From Candidatus Margulisiibacteriota bacterium (GTDB lineage: Bacteria; Margulisbacteria; WOR-1; O2-12-FULL-45-9): a DNA stretch of 44,844 bases. Of the stretch, positions 11,192-27,861 are shown piece after piece; within the stretch, counting starts at the first letter, position 1; every line of letters begins with the position of its first letter. The position numbers and the translations under genes were made by a program. Below the pieces are notes generated by a model. The model was given only the letters and a program-made list of their open reading frames with translations, made no database searches and was not told the origin of the DNA. The DNA is taken from the NCBI GenBank assembly GCA_034723395.1, contig JAYEOW010000016.1, positions 1 through 44,844 of the forward strand, read 5' to 3'.

Positions 11192-11932
11192 TTAAAAGTA
11201 TTGTCTGATAAAATCAAGTACTCTTTGATTATAAAGACGCGGGTTTACCGTATAACAACTAAAATGATCTCCATTTTTAGCGGTCCATATATCTTTTGGG
11301 AAGCCAGCCTCTTCGTACAATTTATCAGCAGCTTCCACGGGAACATCCGTATCCTTATCACCATGAATAATCAGGATTGGACGGGGGGAAATTTTTCCTA
11401 CATAATTTATTGGGGCAATATCCTCGTCAATATTTAATTTCTTCTTAAAATCAGCAAGATATGCTTTCTGCTCTTGAGTACCCGGTAAAAGATATTTATC
11501 ACTAATTTTTATCCGAGCATGATTTTCGAATCGCGGATAAACACTTTCAGCAATGACCCCTTTTATTTTTTTAGACTCTGCAGCGGCAAAAATCACGGCT
11601 GCTCCACCCATTGAAACACCAAAACCTATGATCTTATCTTGATTTATATCTTCCCTATTTGTTAAGTAATTAACTGCCCCCGCAACATCAAAACGCTCAT
11701 TCCAGCCATATGAAAGCGGCGCCTTTTGGCTTTCGCCGCAGCCGCGAAAATCAAAAAGAAAAACATTTATGTTATTTGTGGTAAGAAAGGATGCGAGAGA
11801 TAAGAGCGGCTGATATATGTGGGAACTACCCTTAGGATGACAAATAATTACAGTCGGAGCGTCAGGATCTTTAGTCTCTAAATATCCGACTAAAGAGAAC
11901 CCATCAGAACTATTAAATCTAACTTTATTAAT
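11192..11932 (-). CDS. Alpha/beta hydrolase with no canonical start (ATT start, or frameshifted C-terminal half of 11932-12321)
   Basis: The frame stays open upstream of 11611 through the ATT at 11932: INKVRFNSSDG...VIICH...FDFRGCGES...GVSMGG...HGDKD...GDH (Ser-Asp-His triad). No in-frame ATG/GTG/TTG upstream of the GVSMG Met. Confidence 0.8.
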   Translation of the reverse strand: MNKVRFNSSDGFSLVGYLETKDPDAPTVIICHPKGSSHIYQPLLSLASFLTTNNINVFLFDFRGCGESQKAPLSYGWNERFDVAGAVNYLTNREDINQDKIIGFGVSMGGAAVIFAAAESKKIKGVIAESVYPRFENHARIKISDKYLLPGTQEQKAYLADFKKKLNIDEDIAPINYVGKISPRPILIIHGDKDTDVPVEAADKLYEEAGFPKDIWTAKNGDHFSCYTVNPRLYNQRVLDFIRQYF

Positions 11933-12321
11933 TAAACAACCGTTCCCGAACCTTCCCCTAATCCACCTGATTCTGTTGGTGGTTGAGAATTATCTGCAGT
12001 TGGCATTTTATCTGTGATTTGTCCTATTTTTCTATTCGCTTCATCTAATTGTCCTTGAAGCTTTTTTGCTCGTGGATCTCCCTGCACTCTCAACTGTTCA
12101 ATTCTTTTTGCAAGTTGCGCTACTTTTCTCCTAGCTGTTTCAATTTTTGCTTTCATAGTTCTTACGGTGTCTTTTTTAACTTCCTTGTGCATTTGGTCAA
12201 ATTGTTCGCTAACTTTTCTTCCCATACTGTTTAAATCTTTAATGACCTCATTCAACTGTTTTGTAATACTCTGATTCTGGTTCGCATTCCCTCCAATTCC
12301 TCCAACTTCTCCTATATTCAT
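11932..12321 (-). CDS. Hypothetical coiled-coil protein ending in a Gly/Ser/Pro linker
   Basis: AGGAGG RBS; MNIGEVGG start, heptad-rich body, tail PTADNSQPPTESGGLGEGSGTVV. Confidence 0.75.
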   Translation of the reverse strand: MNIGEVGGIGGNANQNQSITKQLNEVIKDLNSMGRKVSEQFDQMHKEVKKDTVRTMKAKIETARRKVAQLAKRIEQLRVQGDPRAKKLQGQLDEANRKIGQITDKMPTADNSQPPTESGGLGEGSGTVV

Positions 12322-12348
12322 AACAATTCCCTCCTTTTAATAACATTA

Positions 12349-13950
12349 CTAACACGCTTCCTGGATCGAAATTGCAATTTCATGTCCAGGCGCTTCAAAT
12401 CCCGTTTCTTCGGCAAGGCGCTCAAGAATCTCATGCGCCATTTTTCTCTTATTGGTTAAATAAGCAATTTCTCCTCGAGCTTCAATAGCCGTTTGAATTA
12501 ATCTAAATTCATCTTCGGCTTCGCGGAACATCTTGGTATTCGCCTTATCACGAATCTGGTCTAATTCGGTCTGAGATAACTTAACTCCGAGCTTTTCAAG
12601 GTTCTTTAATACGGTCTTAAGCTTACGCTCGGTCATCTTCCAGGCTACCCCCGATAGTTTAGCATAGGTCGCCCGCTCTTCAAATGCTTCGTTCAACATT
12701 TCAAATAATTTCACTTTGGCAAGCGCTTTTCCTTCGGTCTCGATCTCATCAAAGTTCTTAACCCCTAACTTGATCAATCCGTTCTGCATTTTAACCATCT
12801 TGATCTGGGTGGTCAACACGGTCCGCATATCCCCATAAACCGCCCTGCGCAGGTATAGCGCGCGCAGCTTATCGGTCAAGATATCCCGCTCTTCGTCGTG
12901 TGTATATTGGTAACGGTGCCCTTCGCGCTGATCACTGTTATTCGCGCTGGCATTAGCATTGGGCGCGTCTTCGAAATCGATGATCGCGTTAAGCCCCAGG
13001 TCATCTTTCATCTTAGGGATCTTTTTGACAAAATCGCCCACGTCAAATCCCACCTTCGAGCCAAGCTTGATCAATTCGCTGATCTCTTTTTCGACCGCCT
13101 TGCCGTCTTTCCCCAAAGATTTCTTCACAACCTCTTTAGAGATAGCGTCATCCAGGAAATCGCGCATATCGCGGTGAGAATCTTCTTTTACCCTATCAAC
13201 CGCTCCCTGAAGGTGGCCGTCCATACCGCCAAAGTCATATCCTCCGAGGTTATCGTTCATAAACGCGTAGTCGATAAATCCGTTCAGCTCTTTCTTTGCC
13301 AGAATTCCGGCCAGTGATTTAGTCCCGCTGAGAAGATGGTTAATATAAGCTTGTTTGATCTGTTTTAAAACTTCGGACCGGACACTATTGGCTACGCTGG
13401 CCTTGGTACTCTGCAGATCTTTTAAGGATACTCCCCGGTCGTTAAGCAGCTCATTTTCAATTTGCTCCAGCTTCTTTTTGGTCTGCGCTCCGCCGTTAAC
13501 CAGCATTTGCGAATAGGCGCCGATATAATCTTTAACCGTGGTCGCTTTTTGCGGAAGGGCCTCATCCCCGTCCGCCATCTGCTGGCCGCCATTCCGCCCC
13601 TGCTTCTGGTTCTTGGCCGCTTTTAAGATCGGATTACTGATATCAACCATATCCTGAGCGGCATCCTCTTTACCGTAAAGCAGTTCATACTCATTTTTGA
13701 GATTATTGAGAAGCTTATTGGTCGGCATTTTTCCGGCAAGTTTAGCGGCAAGGCCAACGAGAATGCCGGTCCCTACTTTCCCCTTTTTCCCGTCCAAAGC
13801 CTTCTTAAGCGCGCTCTCTTCAACCTTGGTAGCATTATCGGTATTGGCCTGTCGCTCCATCTCAGAGCGGAGGACCTGACCCAGGTTCTCAACCGCTGAA
13901 AGGTTGGACATAACCGCTAAATTCTGTTGACTTAGTTGTTCAATACCCAT
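12349..13950 (-). CDS. Hypothetical alpha-helical protein (533 aa)
   Basis: Long ORF tightly packed in the operon; no recognised family motif. Confidence 0.85.
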   Translation of the reverse strand: MGIEQLSQQNLAVMSNLSAVENLGQVLRSEMERQANTDNATKVEESALKKALDGKKGKVGTGILVGLAAKLAGKMPTNKLLNNLKNEYELLYGKEDAAQDMVDISNPILKAAKNQKQGRNGGQQMADGDEALPQKATTVKDYIGAYSQMLVNGGAQTKKKLEQIENELLNDRGVSLKDLQSTKASVANSVRSEVLKQIKQAYINHLLSGTKSLAGILAKKELNGFIDYAFMNDNLGGYDFGGMDGHLQGAVDRVKEDSHRDMRDFLDDAISKEVVKKSLGKDGKAVEKEISELIKLGSKVGFDVGDFVKKIPKMKDDLGLNAIIDFEDAPNANASANNSDQREGHRYQYTHDEERDILTDKLRALYLRRAVYGDMRTVLTTQIKMVKMQNGLIKLGVKNFDEIETEGKALAKVKLFEMLNEAFEERATYAKLSGVAWKMTERKLKTVLKNLEKLGVKLSQTELDQIRDKANTKMFREAEDEFRLIQTAIEARGEIAYLTNKRKMAHEILERLAEETGFEAPGHEIAISIQEAC

Positions 13951-13951
13951 C

Positions 13952-14998
13952 TTAGTTAGCCCCCATCAGTTCTGGAGATATCTTTCTTACCTTAGCGTAA
14001 CAACTCTTTGCCTTCTCTTTTTCGCCCTTTAATTCATACGCTTTGCCTAAAAGGAAGTTCGGCATCGCCTTGTTCTGATAAATATTTTCTACTTTTCCGT
14101 CTAATTTCATATTCAATATTTCGGTTAAGATCTCGATCGAGGTATCGATTTTTCCCGCCACTAAATAAATACTGGCAAATACGTTGCGGGCCGGAATATT
14201 TTTTGGGTCCAATTTAATTACCGCTTCGGCAGCCTTGGCCGCTTCAGAAAGTTTTTTCATCCTTAACAATAGATCGGCTTTTTTCTCCAAAGCCTGGCGA
14301 ACGATCTCCTTATCAGTTGATAGTTCGTGCGTTTTTGTATAGTGGACCAACGCCGCTTCGTCTCTTTTTAGCTCATTTAAGTTATTAGCCAAAAGGAAAT
14401 GAAGATAAGGATCATTCGGGGTCTTTTCCAAAGCTTTTGAATAGTGCTCTACATACCATTTTCTCTTTTCGTCCATTTTAGATTCTTCCAGGTTCTTCCC
14501 CCAATGATAGATAGCAACCGGAATATCTTCACCGGTGATCGTCTTTCCGCTTCCATCAACCAACTGCTCGTTTATCGGGCGGATAAAGTGATAACCGAGC
14601 CCATTCTTGAATACTTTGGCCCGCTTATAACCGCTCTTATTTTCACAGGTTCCAACCTTAGACTCATACATCGTAAGGGCAAATGCATCATACTCATTTT
14701 TTTCGATCAGCCCTCTTAACTCTTTCAGATCTTCTTCGCGCATATATTCATCGGCATCGATCCAGAGGATCCAATCGCCGGTTGCCGCTTTGATCGATTC
14801 GTTTCGAGCAGCCGAGAAATCGTTTACCCAAGGAAAATAAAAAACCTTTGCCCCATATTTTTCGGCAACCTTGATCGTATCGTCATTTGAACCGGTATCG
14901 ACCAAAATAATTTCATCCGCATATTTACTCAAGCCGGGGAGAGTTTTCTCCAGCATCTTTTTTTCGTTCTTTACGATCATACAAGCCGAAAGTTTCAT
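13952..14998 (-). CDS. GT2 glycosyltransferase with C-terminal TPRs (GmaR/flagellin-glycosyltransferase-like architecture)
   Basis: LSACMIVKNE, DTGS.D.T, W.NDFSAARN, WILWIDADE, then TPR-like helices. Confidence 0.9.
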   Translation of the reverse strand: MKLSACMIVKNEKKMLEKTLPGLSKYADEIILVDTGSNDDTIKVAEKYGAKVFYFPWVNDFSAARNESIKAATGDWILWIDADEYMREEDLKELRGLIEKNEYDAFALTMYESKVGTCENKSGYKRAKVFKNGLGYHFIRPINEQLVDGSGKTITGEDIPVAIYHWGKNLEESKMDEKRKWYVEHYSKALEKTPNDPYLHFLLANNLNELKRDEAALVHYTKTHELSTDKEIVRQALEKKADLLLRMKKLSEAAKAAEAVIKLDPKNIPARNVFASIYLVAGKIDTSIEILTEILNMKLDGKVENIYQNKAMPNFLLGKAYELKGEKEKAKSCYAKVRKISPELMGAN

Positions 14999-15983: not shown

Positions 15984-18083
15984 TTAGGATTTTTGCTTGT
16001 TTTTTTGGAGCCTTGCTTTGGTGTTCGAGGTGTGTTTTTTATACATGCGGGTGCGCATCTTTTGTAAAGCTCTCTGGAAGGCCTTTTTTTCATCAGATTT
16101 ACTCACATATCCTTGAGACGATTTTCCTCTCTGGGCCGCTTTTTTCTCCTCGGCTTTCCGCCTCTTTCTCGATTTTGCCGCCCGTTTCAGGGACTGTTTC
16201 TTCTCCCTGATCTCTTCTTGCTGCAGCTCTTCGATCTGATCAGCGTAATCGGTCTTATCTTGTTTATAACGAGAGCTAATAACCCGCTTAGCCGCACAGC
16301 GTTCCATAATCCTGACTATATCCATCTGCTCTCCCCACTTCAGGTACATCCCAACCGCATGGACCGCCCAGTTATTGGCGAATTCAGGTCCCTGGACAAT
16401 CGCGTTGTACGTTAATCCTTTAAATTGAGCGGTTGTATATTCAGGATGGTGCTCATCCCAGCCCGCGGCATTTTCGTTCATGCGCGAAAGGTGTCCGTAT
16501 AAAGAGTTGTGCAACCGGTCCAATTTATGGGTCCTCCGCCACACGTTCCCCTCTACCCCATTTTCAAGTCTTACATAATAATCTTTTGCCCATTTTCTAT
16601 CCCAACCATAGCTCTTGTACGAAGAGGTCGGCATTTTTACGGCAACAACCTTACTCCAGGAACCATAGCCATCACCGCTAGCCGGCATTGATCCAATGTA
16701 ATCCGACGTGGCAGAATCCAGGTTAACCCACTGCCACGAAGAAACCTCGTCTTGATAATTTTCCCAGATCGGCCTTCCATTTTCTACTTCAGTTGCCCCA
16801 AACCAATCATTAATTAAGGAATTAACCGCGTTATATTCGTCGCTACCTGAGTTATATTGGTCCCGATATGCATAAAGCATATTGGCCTCACTGTTGCTAT
16901 CTCCATTAAAATCTTTCCGGCCAAACCACTTCGATTGTTTCCAGAATATATCGCGGTCCATGTTTGATAATTCATGCCCATTGTTATAGCCCTTTTCATA
17001 AAAGGTGGTCACCCTGTTTTGAAAAGAGTGCTGCATATAGATAAACAACGGGAACATCGAAAGCGCATGATGGTTCATGTAAGGGTTATGCGAAAAGATA
17101 AAGTCATCAACGGAGTCGATCATCGCCTGGTCGTTTCGCGTATTCTCTACCGGTCCTAACATCGCCGACATCGCATACCAGGCACGTTCACGTGATTCGT
17201 ACATAGCAGCGGTGTATAACGCCGCTTCAGATGCGGTTAAATTATTATAAGATCCATCCAGCGCGATCTGATAATAACTCTTCCCGGCAAGATGGACATT
17301 GTTGTCCAGTAAGTTCTTTACATCAATCCACTCCTTTTTAATTGCTTTCAAAAAATCTTTCACAAAATATGCCTGGTCCGCGTCCTGCAATGCGGATTGG
17401 TTATCTTTTGAATGGTCGTTTTTCAGCATGATATGGTTCCACTCACCGGCGCTCATAACCATATTCACATTCCTAAAACGCCCCCCCATCCCGCTTCCCG
17501 CAAAACAACCGTTCGGATCCCCCGAACCGAAATTACCAAAAACTGGTGTGCGGTGGTGCTGGCCGGAGATCCAGTTGGTACGCCACTCGGTATAGCCGTC
17601 TTCACGTCCATTATCCTCTTCCCAGATAATCGTATCAGCATTGGTAATGCGGCCATCTCCGTTACGATCGGATAAAGCGGTCCGGGTAACAACGCCGTTG
17701 CCATCCTGTTCTTCTCCATAACCCCAAAGATCAATATCAGCCGCGTCAAAGTTGCCGTCCCCGTTCTTATCGGTCAATTCGTATTCATTAAAAGCATCCC
17801 ACCACTCCTGAGTAACCCAGGTCTTATCGTTGTCGGGGCCATGCTCAAAATAGACTGCTCCCTCGTCCCCCTCCTCCGCATTCATCTTGCCTGCATATGC
17901 CAGCTGCTCAAATTCGGGAAGGAACTTCATCATTTCCAAACCGAAGTTCCCGAGTTTGAGCAGGTCCTTATTCCCGGTAATAAAGTTGAGGAGATCGGGC
18001 CCCTGGGGAACAATACCTTTGCGGGGTTTACGACTTTTTAACAGGGTCAGGTTCGTAATGTGGGCATATTTGTTGTAAAACAT
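15984..18083 (-). CDS. Hypothetical protein with EF-hand/dockerin-like Ca-binding loops and basic coiled-coil C-terminus (699 aa)
   Basis: DKNGDGNFDAADI, DRNGDGRITNADT, DFNGDSN; W/Y/D/N-rich core; K/R-rich tail. Confidence 0.8.
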   Translation of the reverse strand: MFYNKYAHITNLTLLKSRKPRKGIVPQGPDLLNFITGNKDLLKLGNFGLEMMKFLPEFEQLAYAGKMNAEEGDEGAVYFEHGPDNDKTWVTQEWWDAFNEYELTDKNGDGNFDAADIDLWGYGEEQDGNGVVTRTALSDRNGDGRITNADTIIWEEDNGREDGYTEWRTNWISGQHHRTPVFGNFGSGDPNGCFAGSGMGGRFRNVNMVMSAGEWNHIMLKNDHSKDNQSALQDADQAYFVKDFLKAIKKEWIDVKNLLDNNVHLAGKSYYQIALDGSYNNLTASEAALYTAAMYESRERAWYAMSAMLGPVENTRNDQAMIDSVDDFIFSHNPYMNHHALSMFPLFIYMQHSFQNRVTTFYEKGYNNGHELSNMDRDIFWKQSKWFGRKDFNGDSNSEANMLYAYRDQYNSGSDEYNAVNSLINDWFGATEVENGRPIWENYQDEVSSWQWVNLDSATSDYIGSMPASGDGYGSWSKVVAVKMPTSSYKSYGWDRKWAKDYYVRLENGVEGNVWRRTHKLDRLHNSLYGHLSRMNENAAGWDEHHPEYTTAQFKGLTYNAIVQGPEFANNWAVHAVGMYLKWGEQMDIVRIMERCAAKRVISSRYKQDKTDYADQIEELQQEEIREKKQSLKRAAKSRKRRKAEEKKAAQRGKSSQGYVSKSDEKKAFQRALQKMRTRMYKKHTSNTKARLQKNKQKS

Positions 18084-18097: not shown

Positions 18098-18424
18098 TTA
18101 CGAAAACATGTTGTTTACTTGTCTCTGCAGGGTCATATCATGTTTTAACGCGTCTAAAAGGTTGTTAAAGATCAACCCCTGCTCTTCCTGCCACATCGTC
18201 ATCGCGGTATTCGCGGCAATCCCGTTCTTCTGGTCAGCCGTAAAATGGTACTGGCCAAAATTGAGGTCGGACTCTTCATTAACCAGGTCTTTCATCAAAT
18301 TAGTTAACTCACCTCTAAATCCCCTATAGAAATCGGCGACCTTATCACGGGTAACGGTCGAATTGATCTGATACCCGTCAACCTGAAGGGCGCTTAACGC
18401 TCCGGAATAAACATCTCCAATCAT
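18098..18424 (-). CDS. 108-aa helical protein, putative needle/inner-rod-like subunit
   Basis: AGGAGG RBS; C-terminus FNNLLDALKHDMTLQRQVNNMFS; aligns ungapped with its neighbour. The CDS is solid, the function is inferred. Confidence 0.55.
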   Translation of the reverse strand: MIGDVYSGALSALQVDGYQINSTVTRDKVADFYRGFRGELTNLMKDLVNEESDLNFGQYHFTADQKNGIAANTAMTMWQEEQGLIFNNLLDALKHDMTLQRQVNNMFS

Positions 18425-18457: not shown

Positions 18458-18513
18458 TTTAAGGGACCGCTGGTCCCCTAAATAAGGCAGGCCCCGGTCT
18501 CCCGGGGCCTTCC
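18458..18513 (-). other. Two tandem GC-rich RNA hairpins without a U-tract
   Basis: Minus strand AGGAAGGCCCCGG..CCGGGGCCTGCCT, then TTTAGGGGACC-AGC-GGTCCCTTAAA. Confidence 0.75.
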
Positions 18514-18518: not shown

Positions 18519-18845
18519 TTACATATTGAACTTGTTCATCGCGGTCTTAACCAGTTTGATCTGGTTTGTACCGATTCCTGATATGTTAGATACAGCAGTT
18601 TGAATCGCATCCTTAGCAAATTCTAAGAGCGCGACACCGCCAGTTCCTTGCAGTGAAGCTTCTTTTCCGCCCCACTGAATTGATCCTGCTTCGTGAGTTT
18701 CTGGGTCTCCATCCATAACTACGTCTGCAACTGCATCGTTGTCAGACACTTCATTAGCCGCAGTGATAACCTTATCTAAAAGATCCTGGTTACGCGCGTC
18801 CTGAAGGTTTAATGCGTCAACAACACTTCCTTGAAAATGGTCCAT
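18519..18845 (-). CDS. 108-aa helical protein, putative major needle/filament subunit
   Basis: Own sigma28-like promoter, AGGGGGTG RBS, downstream hairpins; C-terminus ALLEFAKDAIQTAVSNISGIGTNQIKLVKTAMNKFNM. The CDS is solid, the function is inferred. Confidence 0.55.
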   Translation of the reverse strand: MDHFQGSVVDALNLQDARNQDLLDKVITAANEVSDNDAVADVVMDGDPETHEAGSIQWGGKEASLQGTGGVALLEFAKDAIQTAVSNISGIGTNQIKLVKTAMNKFNM

Positions 18846-18887
18846 ATTTTTTCACCCCCTTTTTTCTTTGTTTCCCATCCACTTATA

Positions 18888-18915: not shown

Positions 18916-18916
18916 A

Positions 18917-19150
18917 TCAGACAACCATGTTTTGCTGCATCCCCGGGATGTTGCCGGTCGAGATCTGGGCGATCATGTTTTTAACGTCCTGAGGATCGAT
19001 CTTTAATTCGGGGCTCCCGCCAAGGTTCTTCGCGTCGAGCGCGCTTTTAACCCTGTCTCCCAGCTGGCCAAGTAAATTATTCCCTATCCCTTCCCGGGAT
19101 TCTTTTACCTGGCTGGTCAATTGTGAATTTATGTTAAGTCCTGTTTTCAT
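18917..19150 (-). CDS. Small hypothetical protein (77 aa)
   Basis: ATGA overlap with the upstream gene; fills the gap to promoter 3 exactly. Confidence 0.7.
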   Translation of the reverse strand: MKTGLNINSQLTSQVKESREGIGNNLLGQLGDRVKSALDAKNLGGSPELKIDPQDVKNMIAQISTGNIPGMQQNMVV

Positions 19151-19440
19151 TTGTTTAGATTATCGAACAACTGTTTGATCTTGCCGATCGATTCTTCGAT
19201 AATTTCTTCTTCGGCTTCGAGGAAGCTAAAAGGATCGCTGTGCAGCTCTTCTTTATTGCGGGTAAAGGCCAATGACGCGGCATTGCTCTCTTTTGCGATC
19301 TGCATTTTGGCCGCTTTTGCCACGCCGGCGATACTCTCGGCAAAGTTAGCCCCGTTTGTATTCTGGACGCTATTTACCGACTTTGCGGTCGATTTAACAT
19401 TTATTTCGTTATTATACGGTAATATACTTCCGATATTCAT
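19147..19440 (-). CDS. Small hypothetical protein (97 aa)
   Basis: Starts 1 nt after the giant gene's stop; MNIGSI N/S-rich start, NFAESI, acidic C-terminal helix. Confidence 0.75.
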   Translation of the reverse strand: MNIGSILPYNNEINVKSTAKSVNSVQNTNGANFAESIAGVAKAAKMQIAKESNAASLAFTRNKEELHSDPFSFLEAEEEIIEESIGKIKQLFDNLNK

Positions 19441-19441: not shown

Positions 19442-22400
19442 TTAGGCTACCCCCGCTCCGCTCGTTTTAATACTGTTCTCTTCGCGAAGCGCATCTTCAT
19501 ATTGCTGCCGATAACTCTTCTTTACCTGGCTGCGGGCAATACCAGCCAATACACTAGGCGCGCGGTCTACCAATCCCGGCTTAGGCTGCTCTACTTCCCT
19601 TACGACATTCTCCATATCTTTTTGAACACGCTCTCTTCCCGCCCTAACAAACTTCTGAATAAAGGCAAGGATACTTGAACCAGGAGCTTCCTGGGACGCC
19701 TGAGCCCCCGCTTTTCTGGACGCCTCTCTAACCTCCGCTTTCTTAATATCTCTTTCTAATGATGTAATATCTTTCTGTAATCCCTGCAAATTAGCTCTTA
19801 AACCCTTAACCTCAGTTTCTACCCCTTTAATCTTTTGTTCAGCCAGTTTAATTCGATCGGTTATTTTCTGCTTAGCATGGATTAATAGTTTCTCTTGAGA
19901 TTCCACTGATTTTAACTGCACTTTTAACTTAGCAAGTAATACTTTATCCTGGGCAGTTAGTTTCTTCTTGGTTTGCAGAGCAAATATTTTCTTGCCGATT
20001 TCTGTCCTTTCACGCCGGAGCTGGCCGATCTGGACATCAGCCTGTTTCTGCCATGCCGCAACCTCAGCTCTGATCTTTGGCAGCTGAGTTTTTAAAGCGT
20101 TGAGCTCTTTTATTTTAACCGATAATTGTTTCTGGACCGCATCCCTCTTTTGTTTAAGCTGCACTAACTGCGCCTTAAGCTGCAGTGAGCTGGCCTTTGG
20201 AGCCGCCAGCCTTCTTTGCGGAACATATTTTTTAACTGCCACTGTCTTAACTTTTGAGCTTGAAATATGATTTGCAATCTGGTTTGCCTGCTTAAGCAGC
20301 GCCTGGGTCCTGGTATGAGTAGTTGTCCGGCTGCTCTGGTTTACCCGGTTCACATTAGTTGGAGTAGAAACCTTATTCGCCGCCGGGGCATTTAGGGCCG
20401 CGGCAGCCTGGGCGACCATCGGCGCTAATTTGGGGTCAAGCATCTCAACCTGTTTTAATATTTTAAGCGCGCGTTCTTTGGCAACCTTGCCTCCTCCCAA
20501 CTGATCTATTCCAGATTTGATCAAGGCTTTATTCGGCTGTTTAACTATGTACCAAGCAACATCACGGGCAGAATTTTTCGGATTATTTGCCATTGATTGG
20601 ACTTTTCTATTAAACGCGCTGATGTTGGTCTTCTCCGGAGTCTTTCTCAACCTTAAATAAGTGTCCGCGGAATTTTTCGCTTCGGACATAATGAAATTTG
20701 AGGTCTTTTCGCTCCGGGCAGCCACGTAACTAGCCTTCATATTCTCCTGGTCGATAAATGAGAGCGCTACTTGTGCTGCCTCGATATCAGCATCCATATT
20801 GTCCATTGAATTAAAATAATCCGAAGATTTCTGGGCAGACCGCTCTTTAGGGGCATCTGCTTTTTTAGCATTCTTGTTGTGTACCCCATCATAGGTAAGG
20901 TCAACCGTAATATCGATTAACCGGCTGGCTAGATTTAAGGCCGCGATAACCCGATTGAACTTACCAATATCCTTGCCAATCGTGGTCATATTCTTACCTT
21001 TAAAAAACGATCTTTTATCTTTTACCCAGAAGCTTTTCCCCTTGGTCAATATCTTGTGCTCCGCCTTCATCCGGGCATTATAGGCGCTTAATCCAATCGT
21101 AGCTAAGCTTACTGCCGTCCTAATAGATGATAAAATAACGCCGCTGATTGCCCCTTTGATCTGATTACGCCGTTCAATTATACTGTCTAGCGCGCCCTTT
21201 AACGAATCGAGCATCGAAAGGGCGACCGATTTATGGTCGTTAAGCGAATCTTTACCAAAGTCTTTGCGCGGCATGCTCTTACCCGAAAAGCGCGCTTTTG
21301 CCTGCGACTTGGCATCGGTAAGGATACTGCGGGCAACGGCAATCGCTTCTCTAACATTATATAAAGCCTTCATCCGGCCCGAGAGTTTCGAAGCTTCCGG
21401 GCTAACCATCATAAAGGTGCTGTCGATGCTCGTCATCAGCGAAGAGTTCATCTCCAGCATGATCTCGTATTCCATCTTATCCATCCTGGAATCAATACCT
21501 GCTTCGTTATTAACTCTGCGCCCGGTTTTATCTACGGTAGTTTTTGCTTCATACCCTTTTAAACTACCGTAATCATTTTTACCTAAGGTAATCGACGCGG
21601 TAATCAACGATGCTAATGAGTTGGTCAGTGACATTAATCCGCTGGTTAGTCCCATACATGCCTTATGAAATGTGATTAAACCTGAAGTTGTAGAATTAAG
21701 CGTGGCTGCTCCGCCAACCCCACCAACTATAGCAAACACCGCGTTAACCCCAAACGTAGCCGCGGCCATTTTCATCGCTTTTTCCTTGTCGCGGGCGCGG
21801 TTCATAACCTTTACTTTTTCCTGCAATGCCCTGACGATATTGCTGACCACCTTCATCGCGGTGCTGAAAGAGGCCTGGTTAGTAGATTTTGAAAGTTCGC
21901 CTTGAGTGCTTAAAGTCTGGCCGGTAAACTCCTGTTTTACGATCATCCGGAGCTCAGAAGATAGCGCTCTCGCCTTAGCCAGCGCCTCTTTTGCGGCATA
22001 GATCCTGCCGATCCGCGAATAGACGCTAGTTACCAGAGAGAAATTGACTCCGTAGTAACCGTCGCCGCTCGAAACGATCCCATGCTCCATTAACTCCTGG
22101 TAAGCTTTAAGTTCTATCGCGTCTAACTTTGCTTCGACCGATTTTGCCCCGCGAGAGCGGAGAATATTATCCAGATCTTCGCTTACAACATTAAATGCCC
22201 CTTTGATCTTGTTGTGGTCCCTGACCGCAGTGTACAATTGAAATGCAGCAGAAGATAATGCAGAAACAATCCCCATATACACTCCCCATAAAGCGGGACT
22301 GATTATATATCCAAGAACGGCGCCCAAAGCAGCGCCGGCAACCGAAATTGCCGCCCCTCTCATCGCATCTTTTGCCCCGATGTCGGCTTGCAGCTTCATA

Positions 22401-24958
22401 TTTTTAGCGATCACTACTTCCTGATGATGGAACTTGATCGCGGAGAGGAGCGTCTGCCGCTGCATCATAATATTTTCAACCGCGTTCTGCAGGAGCGCCT
22501 CCCCGGAATTAGCAGAAGAACTTCCGGTAAATTCAGAATCGGCGACCCTTCTAAGGTCTCGGCTGTTCTTGATCAGTGAGAAGATCGACCGGACCGCGTT
22601 ATCCATCATCTTCAGCTTCATCTCATAGGCGGCAAACTGCTTTGTATTTAAGAAATAGAAATCATCACCGGTCTGGCCAAGCATCCCGTTATTGTAGGCG
22701 GCCGCTCTTACCGTTGCCTTCTGCTCCATCTCGATCTCATCAAGCACATCTAAAATAGCATCCCCATGGCCTTTCTTCTCAGTGATCGGTTCGTTGTAAT
22801 GCGCTTCGATCGGATTATATTCCTTAATCCTCGAAGCTTCATAAGTCCCGATCGCGTTCATCAATCCGCCGGCAAGACCGCAAACCGCGGCAACCAGCAT
22901 TGCCATTGCCGGAGCTGTCGCACCGAGCGAGTAGATCGAAACTGCTACAGCGGCGATCGTTAAGACAACCGCGGCCAAGCGGAAAGGGCGCGCCCTTAAA
23001 AGCTGCTGGTAGTTCTTTAGTAATTGAACATTGGTATTATGGAGCTTGCTCTTTAACATCAGCTGAGAAGCGGTAGCGTCAAATACCTGGGTAGCGTGGC
23101 CAAGCGCGGATTCGGCGGACTGCATCAGCATTTCGGCGTCATTCTTGATCCCCGAAAGGCCGGTAAATTTCTCCCGGGCAATATTCCTCATATCCCTGCC
23201 GAGCATTTTGATCGACAGGTAAGAACGAATGCCATTTTGTGAAGCAACCAATCCACCGCGGTAATCCGCGAGCATCCCCTCAATATCAAGGGTCATATAT
23301 TCCGCACCTTCAGCAAAGTCGTACTCACTGCTATCCGCCCATTTCACAAAACCATATGCCATCCCGACGACCGGAATAAAAGATAAGACCGGCCCAAGAA
23401 CATATTGCCACTTGCCCGTCTTCTCAAGGAGTTCATTTAACTTATTGACACCCTTCTCAGTGCCTTTCGAAAGTTCTTCCAGGCCACGGCCAGCCCAGTA
23501 TCCGATGCTGTACTTACGGCCGGTTTTCGCGTACCATTCTCTCGAATCATTGTTCCACTGGCAAATCCACCAGACAACCACATCACCGACCTCCTGCATA
23601 AGCCGCCCGATCTTTTTCATCAAATCCAGCGCGATGCGCGGCAAGGCAGCCATGAAATCAGCCGCCACACTGCCAATTTTGAATATTTGCGCTAATCCCC
23701 ATAATACCCCGGTCTTCTCCATCGCCTTACAAACCGCGTTATTCATGCCGCTTATGGATGACCAGATCCCTTTCCAATCAAACTTTCCCAGGGATTTCCA
23801 GAACTTCTTGAAATTCTTCCGGAAGCCCTTTGGATTGTCCTTCTCGATCTTATCTAGATTCTTCTGGACCTCAGCCAGCCCCTTATCGACTTCCGCATTC
23901 ATCTCATCGATCTTAGCGCTGAATGCCTTTAAGCTCTTGACCATTCCCAGAGCCATCATGTTCATATCGCCGCTGGCAAAACACTGGGTGATCAGGGCAA
24001 TTACCGAGTTAATTACCCCCTGCATTGCAGCTAGGGTTTTCTGGGTCGTTTTATAATATTTCTCCGACTCCTTAAGCGCCATCCTGGTCTTCTTCATGTC
24101 GTTTTTGCCGCCGGTAAAGAAGTTCCCAACCTTATCGTACCACTTGTTGTACTTATTCTTGATCTTCGCCATTTTATCGTTGTATATCTTTAAATTATCG
24201 GTATTTATCTTCTCGAACAGCTTAGCGACCGCTACTTGAGACATCTTTTGAAGGATCCTGATCTTGCGGGCGAAGGTCTCTTTGTAGGAGTATTTATCAT
24301 CCTGGATCGGCTCGCCGGTAAACGCCTCTTCAACCAGCTTCTTGGTCTCGAACTGATTTCCAATCGCAATTAAAAGTGCGGCTAATATATTAGCGCGGGT
24401 TATGATATATTTTGTCCATTCTTCCAGCTTCTCAGGATCCGGCTCCCAGTAACCATCTTCATTCTGGACCATATAATCTTCTTCGGTAAATTCGAGCACT
24501 TTGTCAGTGAGGTCGCCGTCCAGGTTATCCGCGGTATCGATCGCCCCGCCCATTCCACTGGTTTCGTCACCGCTATCTGCCGGTGAGGTTCCATTGGTAC
24601 CGTTAGTTCCGCTGGCGCCATCGGCAGGATCGCTCGGGCTTGGATTTGGCGGTGGCGGAGGCGGAGGAGCCTCTTTGGTCTTTCCTCCGTTAACTAAATC
24701 ATGGTATTCGGAAGAGTTTTCGATATATTGTTCTTCAACCGCTTCCTGAACAGTTTTGGACTGCAAAGCCGCATTGGCCTGGGTGGAATTAAGAGGGGGT
24801 CCCGAGATCTGTGCTTTATCAGTTGCTTCCGCAATCGCTACTTCGAGGGTATCCGAAACAAGAAAATTAGGCTGCGCTCCGGCGCCCGCAAGCCGTTCCT
24901 CGGCTTCAAGCATAGCTCTTTGCAGCTCTATTACATTATTTACGTTTGGAGGATTCAT
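19442..24958 (-). CDS. 1838-aa helical repeat protein with multiple hydrophobic hairpins (translocator-like) and C-terminal coiled coil
   Basis: F(T/S)G-anchored repeats at aa 213, 598, 810, 1011 and 1224; G/A-rich hydrophobic pairs; poly-Pro N-region; no signal peptide seen. Confidence 0.8.
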   Translation of the reverse strand: MNPPNVNNVIELQRAMLEAEERLAGAGAQPNFLVSDTLEVAIAEATDKAQISGPPLNSTQANAALQSKTVQEAVEEQYIENSSEYHDLVNGGKTKEAPPPPPPPNPSPSDPADGASGTNGTNGTSPADSGDETSGMGGAIDTADNLDGDLTDKVLEFTEEDYMVQNEDGYWEPDPEKLEEWTKYIITRANILAALLIAIGNQFETKKLVEEAFTGEPIQDDKYSYKETFARKIRILQKMSQVAVAKLFEKINTDNLKIYNDKMAKIKNKYNKWYDKVGNFFTGGKNDMKKTRMALKESEKYYKTTQKTLAAMQGVINSVIALITQCFASGDMNMMALGMVKSLKAFSAKIDEMNAEVDKGLAEVQKNLDKIEKDNPKGFRKNFKKFWKSLGKFDWKGIWSSISGMNNAVCKAMEKTGVLWGLAQIFKIGSVAADFMAALPRIALDLMKKIGRLMQEVGDVVVWWICQWNNDSREWYAKTGRKYSIGYWAGRGLEELSKGTEKGVNKLNELLEKTGKWQYVLGPVLSFIPVVGMAYGFVKWADSSEYDFAEGAEYMTLDIEGMLADYRGGLVASQNGIRSYLSIKMLGRDMRNIAREKFTGLSGIKNDAEMLMQSAESALGHATQVFDATASQLMLKSKLHNTNVQLLKNYQQLLRARPFRLAAVVLTIAAVAVSIYSLGATAPAMAMLVAAVCGLAGGLMNAIGTYEASRIKEYNPIEAHYNEPITEKKGHGDAILDVLDEIEMEQKATVRAAAYNNGMLGQTGDDFYFLNTKQFAAYEMKLKMMDNAVRSIFSLIKNSRDLRRVADSEFTGSSSANSGEALLQNAVENIMMQRQTLLSAIKFHHQEVVIAKNMKLQADIGAKDAMRGAAISVAGAALGAVLGYIISPALWGVYMGIVSALSSAAFQLYTAVRDHNKIKGAFNVVSEDLDNILRSRGAKSVEAKLDAIELKAYQELMEHGIVSSGDGYYGVNFSLVTSVYSRIGRIYAAKEALAKARALSSELRMIVKQEFTGQTLSTQGELSKSTNQASFSTAMKVVSNIVRALQEKVKVMNRARDKEKAMKMAAATFGVNAVFAIVGGVGGAATLNSTTSGLITFHKACMGLTSGLMSLTNSLASLITASITLGKNDYGSLKGYEAKTTVDKTGRRVNNEAGIDSRMDKMEYEIMLEMNSSLMTSIDSTFMMVSPEASKLSGRMKALYNVREAIAVARSILTDAKSQAKARFSGKSMPRKDFGKDSLNDHKSVALSMLDSLKGALDSIIERRNQIKGAISGVILSSIRTAVSLATIGLSAYNARMKAEHKILTKGKSFWVKDKRSFFKGKNMTTIGKDIGKFNRVIAALNLASRLIDITVDLTYDGVHNKNAKKADAPKERSAQKSSDYFNSMDNMDADIEAAQVALSFIDQENMKASYVAARSEKTSNFIMSEAKNSADTYLRLRKTPEKTNISAFNRKVQSMANNPKNSARDVAWYIVKQPNKALIKSGIDQLGGGKVAKERALKILKQVEMLDPKLAPMVAQAAAALNAPAANKVSTPTNVNRVNQSSRTTTHTRTQALLKQANQIANHISSSKVKTVAVKKYVPQRRLAAPKASSLQLKAQLVQLKQKRDAVQKQLSVKIKELNALKTQLPKIRAEVAAWQKQADVQIGQLRRERTEIGKKIFALQTKKKLTAQDKVLLAKLKVQLKSVESQEKLLIHAKQKITDRIKLAEQKIKGVETEVKGLRANLQGLQKDITSLERDIKKAEVREASRKAGAQASQEAPGSSILAFIQKFVRAGRERVQKDMENVVREVEQPKPGLVDRAPSVLAGIARSQVKKSYRQQYEDALREENSIKTSGAGVA

Positions 24959-24967
24959 CTATAATAT

Positions 24968-24995
24968 ATATCGTGGTTTGAAGGGTAAAACTTGC
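24968..24995 (-). promoter_or_regulatory. sigma28/FliA-like promoter 4
   Basis: GCAAGTTT-N12-CACGATAT, 9 nt before the ATG at 24958. Confidence 0.8.
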
Positions 24996-25009: not shown

Positions 25010-26152
25010 TTATCTACGGGTATTAACCGACGGTTTTGGCGGTGCTGGAGGGACTCGGACGGGAATAGCTGGACCTCCGGCAGGCTGTGTTTTAGTTTGC
25101 ACCTTCATCGCATCCCGATTTTGCTTGATAAATGTCCTTAATTGGGTCGCGCTTGCGCCGCTTTTATACTCTGATACCAGTTTTTTAAACTTAGGACTCC
25201 CCGGGTTAAAATCGTCCATTATCTCAGCGTATCTCTCTCCAACCTTCCATTGCAATCCATTGATTATCTTTACGGTATTACTAAAAGCCTCAAAATCGGC
25301 CTTTGTAACCCCTTTTTTATCCCCTTTTTCTCCTAAGACAAACTTAGCAAACAACGTTCTTGTAAAGACGCGCGAAAGGAGCGGATCCTTGTGCAGGCCC
25401 TTAAGAACATCAACCGAGATGCTTTTCTTTAACGCGTGCAGGTAGAGCTTATTAAACAGCGCGGCTCCCATTAACCGGTTGAATTTCTTCTGCAATGCCG
25501 GGGTTAATGAATCATAACGCTCATGTAACTTACGTTCCAAATCCCGCCCTTTAAGCTTCTCTTTAAAGCCGCGATCTTTCAAATAGGCGAGAATTCGCTT
25601 GGCTTCACCTTTGTGCCAATGGAAAATTGCTTTCCTATTCCTATCCCTAGCCACAAATCCACGCATCTGGCGCGGAGCCGGGGTGATCGTTATCTCGGTA
25701 CAACCTCTGAAATATTCAAAATTGGTATTGGTAGCAATATAGAACTCTTCATAATGTTCAAAAGCCGAGAGCAGCCCGCGCTCACTATAGATCGGCGATC
25801 TACCGGAAAAGGCCTTCCATGCCGCATCGGTAATATTGGTATCAAAAGCTTTTTCAAAATTTTTTCTGGTAAAAGGTTTTCCATCTCGTTTACATCTCTC
25901 AAAAGCATCTTTTAATCGTGCCACTATCCCCATTCGGTCAAGGTCTTTTCCGCCGGTAACTTTAGAGTAAATCTCCGCAATTCTGGCCAACCGATCACTA
26001 AAAGATGTTCGTGTATTAGTAGGAAAAGCGGCAGTGTTTATTGGCGGCGGGGTTGCCCGTTTTGCCTGCGGCTCGACCGCAGGGGCCGGCTTCCGGCGCG
26101 GGGCCGGCGGCGGGATCTGTATTCTAGGTCTGGCTGCGCCTACTGCAATCAT
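25010..26152 (-). CDS. Hypothetical basic protein with Pro-rich termini (380 aa)
   Basis: Abuts the upstream stop, AGGTGG RBS; no recognised domain. Confidence 0.8.
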   Translation of the reverse strand: MIAVGAARPRIQIPPPAPRRKPAPAVEPQAKRATPPPINTAAFPTNTRTSFSDRLARIAEIYSKVTGGKDLDRMGIVARLKDAFERCKRDGKPFTRKNFEKAFDTNITDAAWKAFSGRSPIYSERGLLSAFEHYEEFYIATNTNFEYFRGCTEITITPAPRQMRGFVARDRNRKAIFHWHKGEAKRILAYLKDRGFKEKLKGRDLERKLHERYDSLTPALQKKFNRLMGAALFNKLYLHALKKSISVDVLKGLHKDPLLSRVFTRTLFAKFVLGEKGDKKGVTKADFEAFSNTVKIINGLQWKVGERYAEIMDDFNPGSPKFKKLVSEYKSGASATQLRTFIKQNRDAMKVQTKTQPAGGPAIPVRVPPAPPKPSVNTRR

Positions 26153-26380
26153 TTACTTTAAACCACCTTTTTTTATTAGGTCATCAAGCTCTTTCTGCTT
26201 GGCCTTCATCTTGCCCATTACTTCGTTAAGATTGCTCTCTGCAAGCTTAACTTCTTTATCTGCCTTAGCTTTATAGATATAAGCCTTAATCAAATTTAAG
26301 AGTGAAGAGACCAAAACCACGATCGCCACTCCTAAAAAGAACGATGTCCAATTAAAATTTTGTGTTATAAATTCAAACAT
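26153..26380 (-). CDS. Small single-TM coiled-coil protein (75 aa)
   Basis: WTSFFLGVAIVVLVSSLLNLI followed by a heptad-rich tail. Confidence 0.75.
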   Translation of the reverse strand: MFEFITQNFNWTSFFLGVAIVVLVSSLLNLIKAYIYKAKADKEVKLAESNLNEVMGKMKAKQKELDDLIKKGGLK

Positions 26381-26391: not shown

Positions 26392-26763
26392 TTACCTCAC
26401 TACTTTAGTTGGGACCGCTTTCCTCGACTGGGTTGCAGGCGACGGATTCTTAGTCGTCGCCAGACGTCCGGTATAAGTACCTCTCCGTTCGCCAAACAGC
26501 CGATTTAAAAGCAGACCAAAAACTGATCGATCCTCACCCTGAGACTGGCCGCGGCTGTTTTCACCGGTCGCTTTATCTCCGCCTTCTTGATAAATATCCA
26601 CGCCCTTCCCCTCCTCAACACAGTCGGAACCTCCGATTTTACTGAATTCTTGTGGAACCTCTCCTGATTTCCTTTTGAAATCCTGTCCATGTTTTCTGTT
26701 CGTGATTCTGCCGGGAAGATTAGCTACTACCGAGCCGGCGCTTCTAACATAATTAACTGCCAT
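26392..26763 (-). CDS. Hypothetical low-complexity protein (123 aa)
   Basis: First gene after promoter 5, GAGGTG RBS. Confidence 0.65.
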   Translation of the reverse strand: MAVNYVRSAGSVVANLPGRITNRKHGQDFKRKSGEVPQEFSKIGGSDCVEEGKGVDIYQEGGDKATGENSRGQSQGEDRSVFGLLLNRLFGERRGTYTGRLATTKNPSPATQSRKAVPTKVVR

Positions 26764-26811: not shown

Positions 26812-26815
26812 ATCG

Positions 26816-26857: not shown

Positions 26858-26869
26858 TTATTCAAACAC

Positions 26870-26904
26870 TAAATTTCAAATGACAAATTTCAAATGTCAA
26901 ATGA
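26870..26904. repeat. Five tandem heptamers (CAAATTT/CAAATGA/CAAATGT)
   Basis: taaattt caaatga caaattt caaatgt caaatga. Confidence 0.85.
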
Positions 26905-26916
26905 AGGTCATATTAT

Positions 26917-27801
26917 TTATATTTTATTTATTTCTGCGACTCTACGATCGGGTTGTTTGTCGAACGCGAGAGAGATAGATATATAGTGTATCGGGCTTTC
27001 GGAACCGCGGTAAGCATAATTTACTCCTACTCCATTGCGGCTTACGCCTACTCCAGCTGTATTGTATACTCCATCTTTACCGGCCCGAAGGGCGACCAGC
27101 GAGATCGGCTTCCATTCGCAGCCTACCCTCCCATCACTATCCGCGCTTACTATAATAGATTCGAGAAGTTTAGCTGAAGCGCCAAGAGAGATGCTATATT
27201 CGTCTTCACTGGCACTGTCCATAGCGCTAAAAAAGTTCTTAATATTAATACCCAGAGAGATATCCTCTCCCGGCTTTAACATTGCCGCCAGATCGGCATT
27301 GATAATAGAACCATTATTATCAGATAGCCCTTTTGCTCTGGTAATCAGATAATTTGATACTTTTAAACTTCCGCCCAGGGATAATTTACCCATAAACTTT
27401 GGAACTACCGAAAAGCGGTTGAATTCGCGGGCATATGAGAGGATTAACGCCTGGTTTTGGGCTGCAACCGGGGCCTCGCCTTGGTCGTTGATCGCGGCCG
27501 CGGAGAGGCCGTCAATTGGATAAGCAGAGCTGATATAGCCGATCCCAAAGTTACCAACCGGGGTCTCTTCGACCCCGCCTATAATAGTATAGCTCCTATC
27601 AGAAATTTTGTTTGAAACGACTGCGTGTTCACCGTGGAGATAGCCGATCCCGGCGGGGTTCTCAAAAATAGCATTGGCATCGTCAGCGATAGCCACAAAA
27701 GCTCCCCCCATCCCCATCGGCCTCGCCCCCATATTATCCGAAGCAAAAGAGACGGATGCAACTAGTAAGACTGCAGACAGCAAGAGAATGTACTTCTTCA
27801 T
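26917..27801 (-). CDS. PorV/PorQ (UPF0164, FadL-like) outer-membrane beta-barrel
   Basis: Signal peptide, GARPMGMGGAFVAIADDANAIFENPAG signature, alternating beta-strands. Confidence 0.8.
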   Translation of the reverse strand: MKKYILLLSAVLLVASVSFASDNMGARPMGMGGAFVAIADDANAIFENPAGIGYLHGEHAVVSNKISDRSYTIIGGVEETPVGNFGIGYISSAYPIDGLSAAAINDQGEAPVAAQNQALILSYAREFNRFSVVPKFMGKLSLGGSLKVSNYLITRAKGLSDNNGSIINADLAAMLKPGEDISLGINIKNFFSAMDSASEDEYSISLGASAKLLESIIVSADSDGRVGCEWKPISLVALRAGKDGVYNTAGVGVSRNGVGVNYAYRGSESPIHYISISLAFDKQPDRRVAEINKI

Positions 27802-27833
27802 TTGACCCTCCTATTAAACATCCTACACCTTTA

Positions 27834-27861
27834 TTATCGTAGCTTGGGGGATAAAACTTGC
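27834..27861 (-). promoter_or_regulatory. sigma28/FliA-like promoter 6
   Basis: GCAAGTTT-N12-TACGATAA. Confidence 0.78.

Follow-up and report, generated by a model that had tools for sequence, protein, structure and literature searches.

A block of orphan genes under a sigma-28-like promoter and a flagellin-less flagellar-type export machine in Margulisiibacteriota

We analyzed a 44,844-nucleotide stretch of DNA (hereafter the window), which is contig C16 (JAYEOW010000016.1) of the metagenome-assembled genome (GCA_034723395.1; hereafter G000; 1.68 Mb in 55 contigs) of an uncultured Candidatus Margulisiibacteriota bacterium of Saganbacteria type; this genome is 97% complete, and the absences of genes reported for it rest on that completeness. 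Our subject is a block of mostly orphan genes in the window, which an earlier reading of the bare sequence (the original prediction) had taken for the exported-substrate module of a type III export-derived system. As predicted, the block comprises 16 co-oriented open reading frames (ORFs), all on the minus strand from 27801 to 11192, which code in that order for proteins of 294, 123, 75, 380, 1838, 97, 77, 108, 108, 699, 176, 136, 348, 533, 129 and 139 amino acids (aa). They are disposed in five units, namely 294 / 123-75-380 / 1838-97-77 / 108-(hairpin)-108-699 / 176-136-GT-533-129, where GT is the 348-aa glycosyltransferase, and the rest of the window is given over to housekeeping genes (MreBCD, PBP2, hisH/hisA, rpiB, pdxJ and polysaccharide genes). 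Among the block ORFs only the 348-aa protein, with GT2 and TPR domains, and the 139-aa hydrolase fragment exceed the curated cut-offs of Pfam, and NCBIfam scans of 15 of the 16 ORFs, leaving aside the 139-aa fragment, added just a sub-threshold PorV/PorQ match for the 294-aa protein. The other 13 match nothing above cut-off in either library, and the description of the proteins as mostly unrecognisable holds for these, with the GT2-TPR protein and the hydrolase fragment recognised. By blastp against all ORFs of G000, the block proteins have no paralogs in the genome, the PorV-like barrel excepted.

The upstream regions of the units yielded the motif CAAGTTTT-N12/13-CGATA[AT], which can also be written CAAGTTT-N12/13-CGATA[AT] and resembles the sigma-28 consensus, TAAAGTTT-N11-GCCGATAA. 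A search of the window with the pattern CAAGTTTT-N{10,16}-CGATA returned seven matches against 0.00 expected from 100 shuffles, of which six are intergenic and on the minus strand. Five of these head the block units: P1 (CAAGTTTT-N13-CGATA, 27835..27860) at unit 1, P2 (26785..26810) at unit 2, P3 (24969..24994) before the gene for the giant 1838-aa protein of unit 3, P4 (18889..18914) at unit 4 and P5 (15949..15974) at unit 5. The sixth (1866..1891) lies upstream of a gene for a 426-aa FliK-like protein (499-1779, minus strand; Pfam Flg_hook, E 3e-5, 24.2 bits, cut-off 29.8), which is followed by one for a stand-alone FlhB C-terminal-domain protein (hereafter FlhB-C) of 112 aa (154-492, minus strand; Bac_export_2, E 1.7e-20; TIGR00789, E 4.6e-26, 90.8 bits, below the cut-off of 117.35). 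Hence, the claim that five units share one promoter with the FliK-like/FlhB-C pair stands. The seventh match, on the plus strand inside a gene (41561-41587), probably arose by chance. A different pattern, TAAA-N13-17-CCGATA, was rejected as the motif, having three matches against 1.1 expected and none of them intergenic; the real -35 element is CAAGTTT.

Both the promoter and the block are conserved well beyond this genome. In the loci fetched from relatives at four taxonomic levels, the motif occurs at orthologous positions in 10 of 10: the equivalent of P1 keeps its position before the orthologous barrel gene in four loci (L049, L051, L052 and L054), that of P2 precedes the orthologous small gene in L044, that of P3 precedes orthologs of the giant gene in L044, L049, L051, L054, L057 and L058, that of P4 precedes the positional equivalents in relatives, and that of P5 precedes orthologs of the 176-aa gene in L046, L048, L050, L053, L055 and L056. 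Upstream of FliK the motif was found in at least nine of 29 loci from relatives in the class, a minimum count, the flanks reaching no further than 1500 nt. The gene order, from the barrel through the 75-aa, giant, 97-aa, 77-aa, two 108-aa, 699-aa, 176-aa, 136-aa, glycosyltransferase and 533-aa genes, is likewise kept within the family, the order and the class, and partly in another class; the synteny check proposed with the original prediction thus bore out block, gene order and promoters across the class. These observations bear on the simplest alternative, that the block consists of chance ORFs under a chance motif or sits on a mis-binned foreign contig. The contig does come from a metagenome-assembled genome, and nothing positive was found in support of such an artefact, which is effectively refuted by conservation and hardly credible: gene order and flanking housekeeping genes are the same in G043, a member of the same class, orthologs of block proteins reach as many as 111 of the 121 genomes sampled from the phylum, and the motif, found seven times where none is expected, is kept in relatives.

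The promoter marks a regulon larger than the block. Around 20 intergenic copies of the motif are dispersed across G000, none of them on the contigs that carry the basal-body genes, C55 and C46, and 12 of 13 further proteins encoded downstream of such copies elsewhere in the genome belong to no Pfam family; these include giants of 768, 1152, 3665, 1911 and 952 aa, and a nucleotidyltransferase-like protein is also in the regulon. This sigma-28-type promoter would mark the regulon in whichever Margulisiibacteriota genome is examined. The start codon of the giant gene of the block lies merely 10 nt past CGATA (24959-24994), and those of many regulon genes of relatives (loci L044-L057) lie 7-13 nt past it; the regulon mRNAs are thus probably leaderless or nearly so, without a Shine-Dalgarno sequence. 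G000 codes for three sigma factors related to FliA, which are 246, 196 and about 230 aa long (C55:4553-5293, C46:681-1271 and C31:~18800-19230), and the first has FliA_WhiG as its best model. The copy on C31 lies immediately upstream of a further gene headed by the motif, and the short sigma type directly follows FlhA, with one or two small ORFs between, in G043 and in another relative, G010. The 'late' timing linked with sigma-28 in the original prediction fared less well: in 20 of 29 relatives the motif-headed FliK/FlhB-C pair runs into the operon for rod, rings and sigma factor, and the regulon is therefore not simply late.

The export core had been expected elsewhere than in the window, and was recovered on contigs C55 and C46. 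The former carries FlgF, FlgG, FlgA, FlgH, FlgI, a FlgJ-like protein, the 246-aa FliA-like sigma factor, FlgB, FlgC, FliE, FliF, FliG, FliH, FliI and FliJ; the latter carries a second FliK-like protein, a 271-aa FlgE/G-like protein, FliM, FliN, FliO, FliP, FliR, FlhB and FlhA. The proteins of the export gate and ATPase match their Pfam families far above cut-off, FliQ was recognised in G043 (its model was not scanned in G000), and the FlgJ-like protein, of 100 aa and without a Pfam match, is a putative assignment from our reading of its sequence. All core proteins, FliF included, score higher with flagellar than with injectisome (Sct) equivalog models: FlhA 770.8 bits (just below its cut-off of 772.1) against 661 for SctV, FlhB 409.7 against 335 for SctU, FliP 258.2 against 198.9 for SctR, and FliI 666.2 against 615.5 for SctN. 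The 271-aa FlgE-like protein, encoded beside a FliK-like gene, reaches 120.8 bits with TIGR03506, the FlgE/F/G subfamily model (cut-off 70.25), matches no FlgE equivalog above cut-off and has the length of a rod protein. C16 ends just past the FlhB-C gene and C55 begins just before FlgF (C55:1-912); given that the two genes are adjacent in 20 of 29 relatives, these contig ends may be neighbors in the genome. FlhB-C and FlgF are not adjacent in the closest order (f2).

This machine lacks recognisable outer parts and a motor. Flagellin_N and Flagellin_C have no match in G000 at E<=0.1, FliS, FliD (FliD_C) and FlgM were not found in it, and neither were FlgK and FlgL, Flg_bbr_C giving just four matches in the genome (FlgF, FlgG, FlgC and the FlgE-like protein). 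FliG is 154 aa long, with the N and M domains only, and the FliG_C model gives a single chance-level match of 16.8 bits elsewhere in the genome. MotB_plug is without a match in G000, and MotAB are absent, the sole gene of the MotA_ExbB family in the genome being ExbB in an ExbB-ExbD-TonB operon. The combination that had been proposed as a check, an export core with a FliA-like sigma factor and without flagellin or MotAB/FliG_C, is accordingly what this 97% complete genome contains. A secretin had also been among the things to look for: two short ones exist, on contigs C5 and C1, one of them beside a PilO/T2SS-M-like gene, but no type III gene lies in the approximately 1.5-kb flanks of either, and the machine has the L and P ring proteins FlgH and FlgI instead.

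To place these features in the phylum we used a sample of 121 Margulisiibacteriota genomes, 71 of them of high quality; being relatives, the genomes are not mutually independent. A profile of the 533-aa protein finds a match in 111 of the 121 (71 of the 71 high-quality genomes) and FlhA is found in 113 (69 of 71), as against 15 genomes with Flagellin_N. The five flagellated members that we examined each possess two types of FlhA, of which type b is 63-65% identical to the FlhA of G000 (60-93% within the type) and type a 41-44%. The presence of two types, together with the near-universality of the system, indicates that the flagellin-less system is a distinct phylum-wide apparatus rather than a decayed canonical flagellum. 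Within the class, the FlhB-C protein is found in 30 of 31 genomes; it is preceded by FliK in 29 of 29 loci and followed by FlgF in 20 of 29. About 5 kb separates the export-gate operon from the block in G010. G035, a genome of the same order, has a single weak Flagellin_N match (C4:62270-62632, 59 bits, in a 253-aa frame), which could be either a remnant or an axial protein that has diverged, and no match for FliG_C or MotB. Margulisbacteria are listed among phyla with some flagellins (PMC7018530) and among those with FlgV homologs (PMC11607428). Our literature search, with subscription journals outside its scope, found no account from Margulisbacteria or Saganbacteria of a system of flagellar type without flagellin.

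The most widespread member of the block is the 533-aa orphan (12349..13950, minus strand, like all block genes that follow), the phylum-wide core gene of the module, whose family is present with 264 cluster representatives in a collection of 1.84 billion proteins. An AlphaFold2 model from a 91-sequence alignment (pLDDT 80) has residues 1-128 predicted as disordered and residues 129-525 as an all-alpha domain with pLDDT >90. Against the PDB, its sequence profile has a best E of 0.68 and Foldseek returns nothing at E<=0.001; ESM Atlas gives TM <= 0.32, and VIA in its wide mode a best Z of 7.5, to short helical pieces. The 699-aa orphan (15984..18083), with homologs in 22 of the 121 genomes, was likewise modeled with confidence (pLDDT 85.1, pTM 0.81), as an alpha/beta body carrying two D-x-N-G-D-G loops, followed by a C-terminal helix of approximately 130 residues that is very basic; the protein has no Foldseek match in the PDB at E<=0.001 and a best Z of 5.6 in the wide VIA search. 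In the fold check that had been suggested, the block ORFs resolve neither to ordinary axial proteins nor to a known fold, as far as the family scans of the ORFs and the searches with these two models go.

Directly upstream of the 699-aa gene lies that for the second 108-aa acidic orphan (18098..18424; pI 4.6; recognised by family alignment), a candidate dedicated chaperone. The two are an adjacent pair by sequence in eight of the ten relatives fetched (G085, G069, G083, G055, G067, G011, G023 and G020), and no homolog of the 108-aa protein was detected in the remaining two, G007 and G015. The first 108-aa acidic orphan (18519..18845; pI 4.4) is fast-evolving, with sequence homologs only within the family, and is followed by a terminator-like hairpin of nine pairs, eight of them G-C (18489..18510), the top-ranked such site between 11000 and 28000; it is possible that this is a partial terminator that would give the first 108-aa gene high expression. 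The positional equivalent of this protein in G043 (L117:7413-7757) reaches 25.8 bits with EF-hand_5, against a cut-off of 25.9. Calcium binding, to judge from this match and the D-x-N-G-D-G loops of the 699-aa protein, may be a recurring theme in the module.

Unit 3 opens with the 1838-aa giant orphan (19442..24958), which has no Pfam or NCBIfam match, no signal peptide and a coiled-coil-like C-terminal third. It contains four tandem modules of about 205 aa, each ending in a hydrophobic hairpin, with the motif [KER]F[TS]G at residues 596, 808, 1009 and 1222 and at least five hydrophobic 19-residue windows between residues 519 and 1081. The modules are visible at the motif level only, self-blastp having detected no internal repeats in the protein, and a comparison with the Atlas gave a best feature score of 0.80, within the chance range. 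Its orthologs in relatives range from 1207 to 2620 aa. Directly after it is encoded a 97-aa acidic orphan without a family (19147..19440; pI 5.1), which is kept in the loci of seven relatives and is a candidate chaperone or anti-sigma factor, and then a 77-aa orphan (18917..19150; recognised by family alignment), whose gene in relatives has a motif of its own, which lies 7-13 nt ahead of the start in L044, L046, L052 and L054 and at a distance of 88 nt in L043.

Unit 5 begins with two basic orphans, of 176 aa (15393-15923; pI 9.5) and 136 aa (15010-15420; pI 9.7); in G020, which belongs to another class, both are matched by one fused protein of 247 aa (L060:10900-11643), suggesting that the two interact. 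Next comes the 348-aa cytoplasmic GT2 glycosyltransferase with C-terminal TPR repeats (13952..14998), which matches the Pfam family Glycos_transf_2 with 91.1 bits and several TPR families above cut-off, is SunS-like below cut-off (E 8e-23), and is kept in the block in eight relatives and also in G043. The last gene of the unit, after that for the 533-aa protein, codes for a basic coiled-coil orphan of 129 aa (11932..12321) with sub-threshold coiled-coil matches only and no homolog in the syntenic loci of relatives. The 139-aa ORF beyond it (11192-11611) represents the C-terminal portion of an alpha/beta hydrolase (BD-FAE, 28.5 bits, cut-off 26.8; Peptidase_S9) and is not part of the module, so that of the extent first proposed, 11192..27861, the gene block stands and its low end falls away. 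The N-terminal part of the hydrolase apparently continues upstream in frame without an ATG, GTG or TTG, directly after the stop of the 129-aa gene (11192-11931); the ORF may be a truncated gene or one with an unusual start.

At the other end of the block, unit 1 is the single gene for the 294-aa protein (26917..27801), a PorV/PorQ-type outer-membrane barrel with a signal-like hydrophobic N-terminus. Its match to NCBIfam NF033709 (E 4e-12, 46.4 bits) does not reach the cut-off, which is 90; in G000 about 12 barrel-length paralog matches occur, and orthologs with 38-41% identity head the block in order-level relatives. Unit 2 codes for three orphans with no family above cut-off, of 123 aa (26392-26763), 75 aa (26153-26380; one transmembrane segment) and 380 aa (25010-26152; both ends basic and P-rich), of which the 75-aa protein is kept in the loci of six relatives and the other two only in the closest relative, G069. 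Some 5 kb from the barrel gene, a gene on the plus strand (32557-35136) codes for an 859-aa protein with Ig-like domains and a C-terminal CHU_C domain, of type IX secretion. Two genes for endonuclease-like DUF559 proteins were also noted, one among the housekeeping genes of the window (8515-8871, plus strand), the other directly downstream of FlhA (C46:19929-20306; L016:1929-2306).

The N-termini of the regulon proteins set them apart. We compared residues 2-26 of 23 regulon proteins with those of 1551 background ORFs and found N enriched 2.7-fold, Q 2.5-fold, P 1.8-fold and G 1.4-fold, with F, C, M and D depleted and serine unchanged (0.99-fold); the combined fraction of N, Q, S, G, P and T is 0.445 against 0.280 (Mann-Whitney p = 2.9e-10). 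Of the S/N/Q/P-rich N-termini that had been described, the richness in N, Q and P is thus borne out and that in S is not, and their disorder applies to the first 128 residues of the 533-aa protein but not to the ordered 699-aa protein. None of the 23 tested has a hydrophobic N-terminal signal, in line with the predicted lack of signal peptides, from which the 294-aa protein, with its signal-like N-terminus, and the 75-aa protein, with its transmembrane segment, depart.

This composition bears on a reading in which export plays no part: the FliA-like sigma factor would have been recruited for a stage-specific or envelope programme, with the orphans acting in the cytoplasm or in membranes via ordinary routes. 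Sigma-28 in Chlamydia and WhiG in Streptomyces are such recruited FliA-family sigmas, G000 has three FliA-related ones, the regulon includes a Sec-type outer-membrane barrel, membrane proteins and the nucleotidyltransferase-like protein, the giant protein could be an inner-membrane protein, and the block is unlinked to the basal-body operons in G000. Nevertheless, we consider this reading distinctly unlikely, given that FliK/FlhB-C, which in 20 of 29 relatives adjoins the rod/ring/sigma operon, is headed by this promoter too, that the N-termini are compositionally distinct from the proteome, and that the 533-aa family and type-b FlhA are both near-universal in the phylum; moreover, a fully conserved export machine without a recognisable substrate would otherwise be left with nothing to export.

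Relatives that bear a motor throw light on the ancestry of the machine. Across the 121 genomes, FliG_C is found in 56 and MotB_plug in 52, against the 15 with flagellin; among 35 sampled genomes of families f1-f5 and f7, that of G000 included, neither FliG_C nor MotB is found in any. The genome of G043 is 100% complete and has no flagellin match, and its operon runs Rho, Mur ligase, a FliF_C-FliG_M-FliG_C protein, MotA, MotB, FliK, a FlgE-like protein, FliM, FliN, FliP, FliQ, FliR, FlhB, FlhA and a short sigma factor. Its syntenic block has the same hisH/hisA and NTP-transferase/rpiB flanks as that of G000 and contains only orphans, the GT2-TPR gene and the 533-aa homolog. We considered whether its FliG_C match, of the class of about 480-500 aa, is MgtE, and rejected this, the protein being FliF_C-FliG_M-FliG_C beside MotA/MotB; among the FliG_C matches of that size, which occur also in other classes, this G043 example is the one examined in detail against MgtE. 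Since MotAB and FliG-C are encoded in the operon of the same system in G043, the machine descends from a rotary flagellum, and the lineage of G000 has lost the stator and the torque domain of FliG.

From these relatives also comes the case for a divergent flagellum, in which the block would be the junction, filament, cap, chaperone and glycosylation module of an ancient non-flagellin flagellum, with which motor-bearing relatives swim and which in G000 is static or decaying. In G043, genes for FliF_C-FliG_M-FliG_C, MotA and MotB head the orthologous export-gate operon in a genome without a flagellin match, and its syntenic block likewise holds orphans with the GT2-TPR and 533-aa genes; motor genes far outnumber flagellin in the phylum, as the above counts attest. 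Further, a GT2-TPR enzyme in a late flagellar-type operon resembles the flagellin glycosyltransferases, the first 108-aa gene, with a promoter to itself and a strong hairpin behind it, is laid out like the gene of an abundant subunit, and the 77-aa gene has its own promoter in relatives. However, axial-family terminal motifs are lacking beyond the FlgE-like protein, the models of the 533-aa and 699-aa proteins are unlike flagellin, hook-associated proteins and FliD by Foldseek and VIA, and a giant protein with hydrophobic hairpins has no counterpart in flagellar filaments. Families f1-f5 and f7, for their part, keep the module intact without FliG_C or MotB (0 of 35), which points to a function that does not need rotation. 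Hence, we regard a divergent flagellum as somewhat unlikely.

Taken together, we favor with moderate confidence the reading that the block is the conserved module of cargo or outer parts of a phylum-wide, flagellum-derived, flagellin-less type III export machine with a non-rotating role in secretion or attachment. In G000 the machine cannot rotate because it is without stator and FliG torque domain, and its most likely use is in secretion or attachment. We infer that the orphan proteins are exported or assembled by the flagellar-type machine. A FliA-like sigma factor would turn on the regulon of the block, whereupon the 533-aa, 699-aa, 1838-aa and 77-108-aa proteins would leave via the export gate and then the channel of rod and FlgE-like proteins. 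The acidic proteins of around 100 aa encoded beside the large ones might serve as export chaperones, the GT2-TPR enzyme, from its position in the operon and by analogy with flagellin glycosyltransferases, may glycosylate a substrate in the cytoplasm before export, and the PorV-like barrel could be the outer-membrane partner.

Several observations weigh against this reading. The presence of MotAB and FliG-C in the same operon in G043 means that the machine probably rotates in some relatives, which suits a filament more than a secretion device. Sec-type or transmembrane features in the 294-aa barrel and the 75-aa protein mean that not every member of the block is a type III substrate, and the N-terminus of the 699-aa protein is ordered and conserved, without a disordered signal. 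In whole-library Pfam and NCBIfam scans of the block ORFs, no family of chaperones, needles, tips or translocators was recognised. Neither in G000 nor in the single-contig relatives G007 and G023 does the block adjoin basal-body genes, the FliA-like sigma factor falls short of the NCBIfam FliA cut-off (135.6 against 189.6 bits), and the two further FliA-related sigmas could read the motif.

The contact or injection appendage under flagellar-type regulation that had been proposed for this locus survives in part: regulon and machine are present, but the machine is a descendant of the flagellum, and the block could equally be the module of a non-flagellin filament. Of the labels given to the substrates, only that of glycosyltransferase is borne out, and needle/rod pair, translocator, tip and effectors are unsupported beyond a broad likeness; the machine is of the flagellar rather than the injectisome type. 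As a tentative extension, Margulisiibacteriota may possess a third kind of type III machine, an ancient, phylum-universal one of flagellum type with distal parts and cargo unrelated to flagellin or needle proteins, which in motor-bearing classes may rotate a non-flagellin appendage and in Saganbacteria would be static, secreting giant hairpin proteins or inserting them into other cells. An attached lifestyle, as reported for Termititenax, would be in keeping with this.

The wider import of these findings is that a whole phylum, the sister lineage of the Cyanobacteria, keeps a flagellar-type basal body of which the outer parts and the regulon are replaced by unrecognised proteins. To our knowledge, only the end points are known of the path by which the injectisome arose from the flagellum; here, motor-bearing and motorless lineages stand side by side, some members with a canonical flagellum in addition, and offer a natural series in which to ask how a motility organelle turns into a secretion device. 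The system also bears on what the flagellar export gate can export besides axial proteins, and gives a testable context to at least 12 conserved protein families of unassigned function, two of which have confident models that match no solved structure.

Among known systems, the flagellum of Salmonella and Bacillus subtilis shares with this one the export gate, ATPase complex, MS ring, FliM/N, rod, L and P rings, FliK ruler and FlhB switch, and also a FliA-like sigma factor, encoded here inside the basal-body operon, a promoter resembling the sigma-28 form, and a glycosyltransferase and small acidic proteins beside large substrate-like ones. It differs in that G000 has no recognisable flagellin, FlgK, FlgL, FliD, FliS or FlgM, a FliG of only 154 aa and no MotAB, and in that the regulon is made up of orphans, among them proteins 1838-3665 aa long. 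As in the GT2-TPR flagellin and peptide glycosyltransferases, the 348-aa protein combines a GT2 catalytic domain with TPR repeats; the resemblance of the 294-aa protein to the PorV/PorQ barrels of type IX secretion is sub-threshold, at 46.4 bits against the cut-off of 90. The injectisome, like this machine, is a descendant of the flagellum that lost rotation and has a ruler and a switch; there are parallels, too, in the putative export of proteins without Sec signals, in the small acidic helper-like proteins, and in the large hairpin proteins reminiscent of translocators. Unlike it, the present system has a core that scores as flagellar rather than Sct, the FlgH/FlgI L and P rings and the full rod FlgB/C/F/G, while no secretin is encoded beside type III genes (flanks of about 1.5 kb) and no SctF, tip or translocator family appears in the whole-library scans of the block ORFs. 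In Buchnera aphidicola, flagellar basal bodies are kept without filament or motility and have been proposed to be protein exporters (PMC8109811). This is the nearest known case, with a basal body and export apparatus without flagellin and a presumed role in secretion. In the Margulisiibacteriota, by contrast, the state is phylum-wide, has its own sigma-28-type regulon of conserved orphans, and coexists in flagellated members with a second, canonical flagellar system. The Buchnera basal body is a recent reductive remnant in one endosymbiont lineage, and we know of no dedicated cargo regulon for it. Finally, the Chlamydiae, with few flagellar homologs, an injectisome and a late sigma-28 regulon, offer a parallel in which a FliA-family sigma presides over non-flagellar genes in an organism without flagella; here, unlike there, the basal body is complete and of the flagellar type, and the promoter that heads the orphans also heads the FliK/FlhB-C pair.

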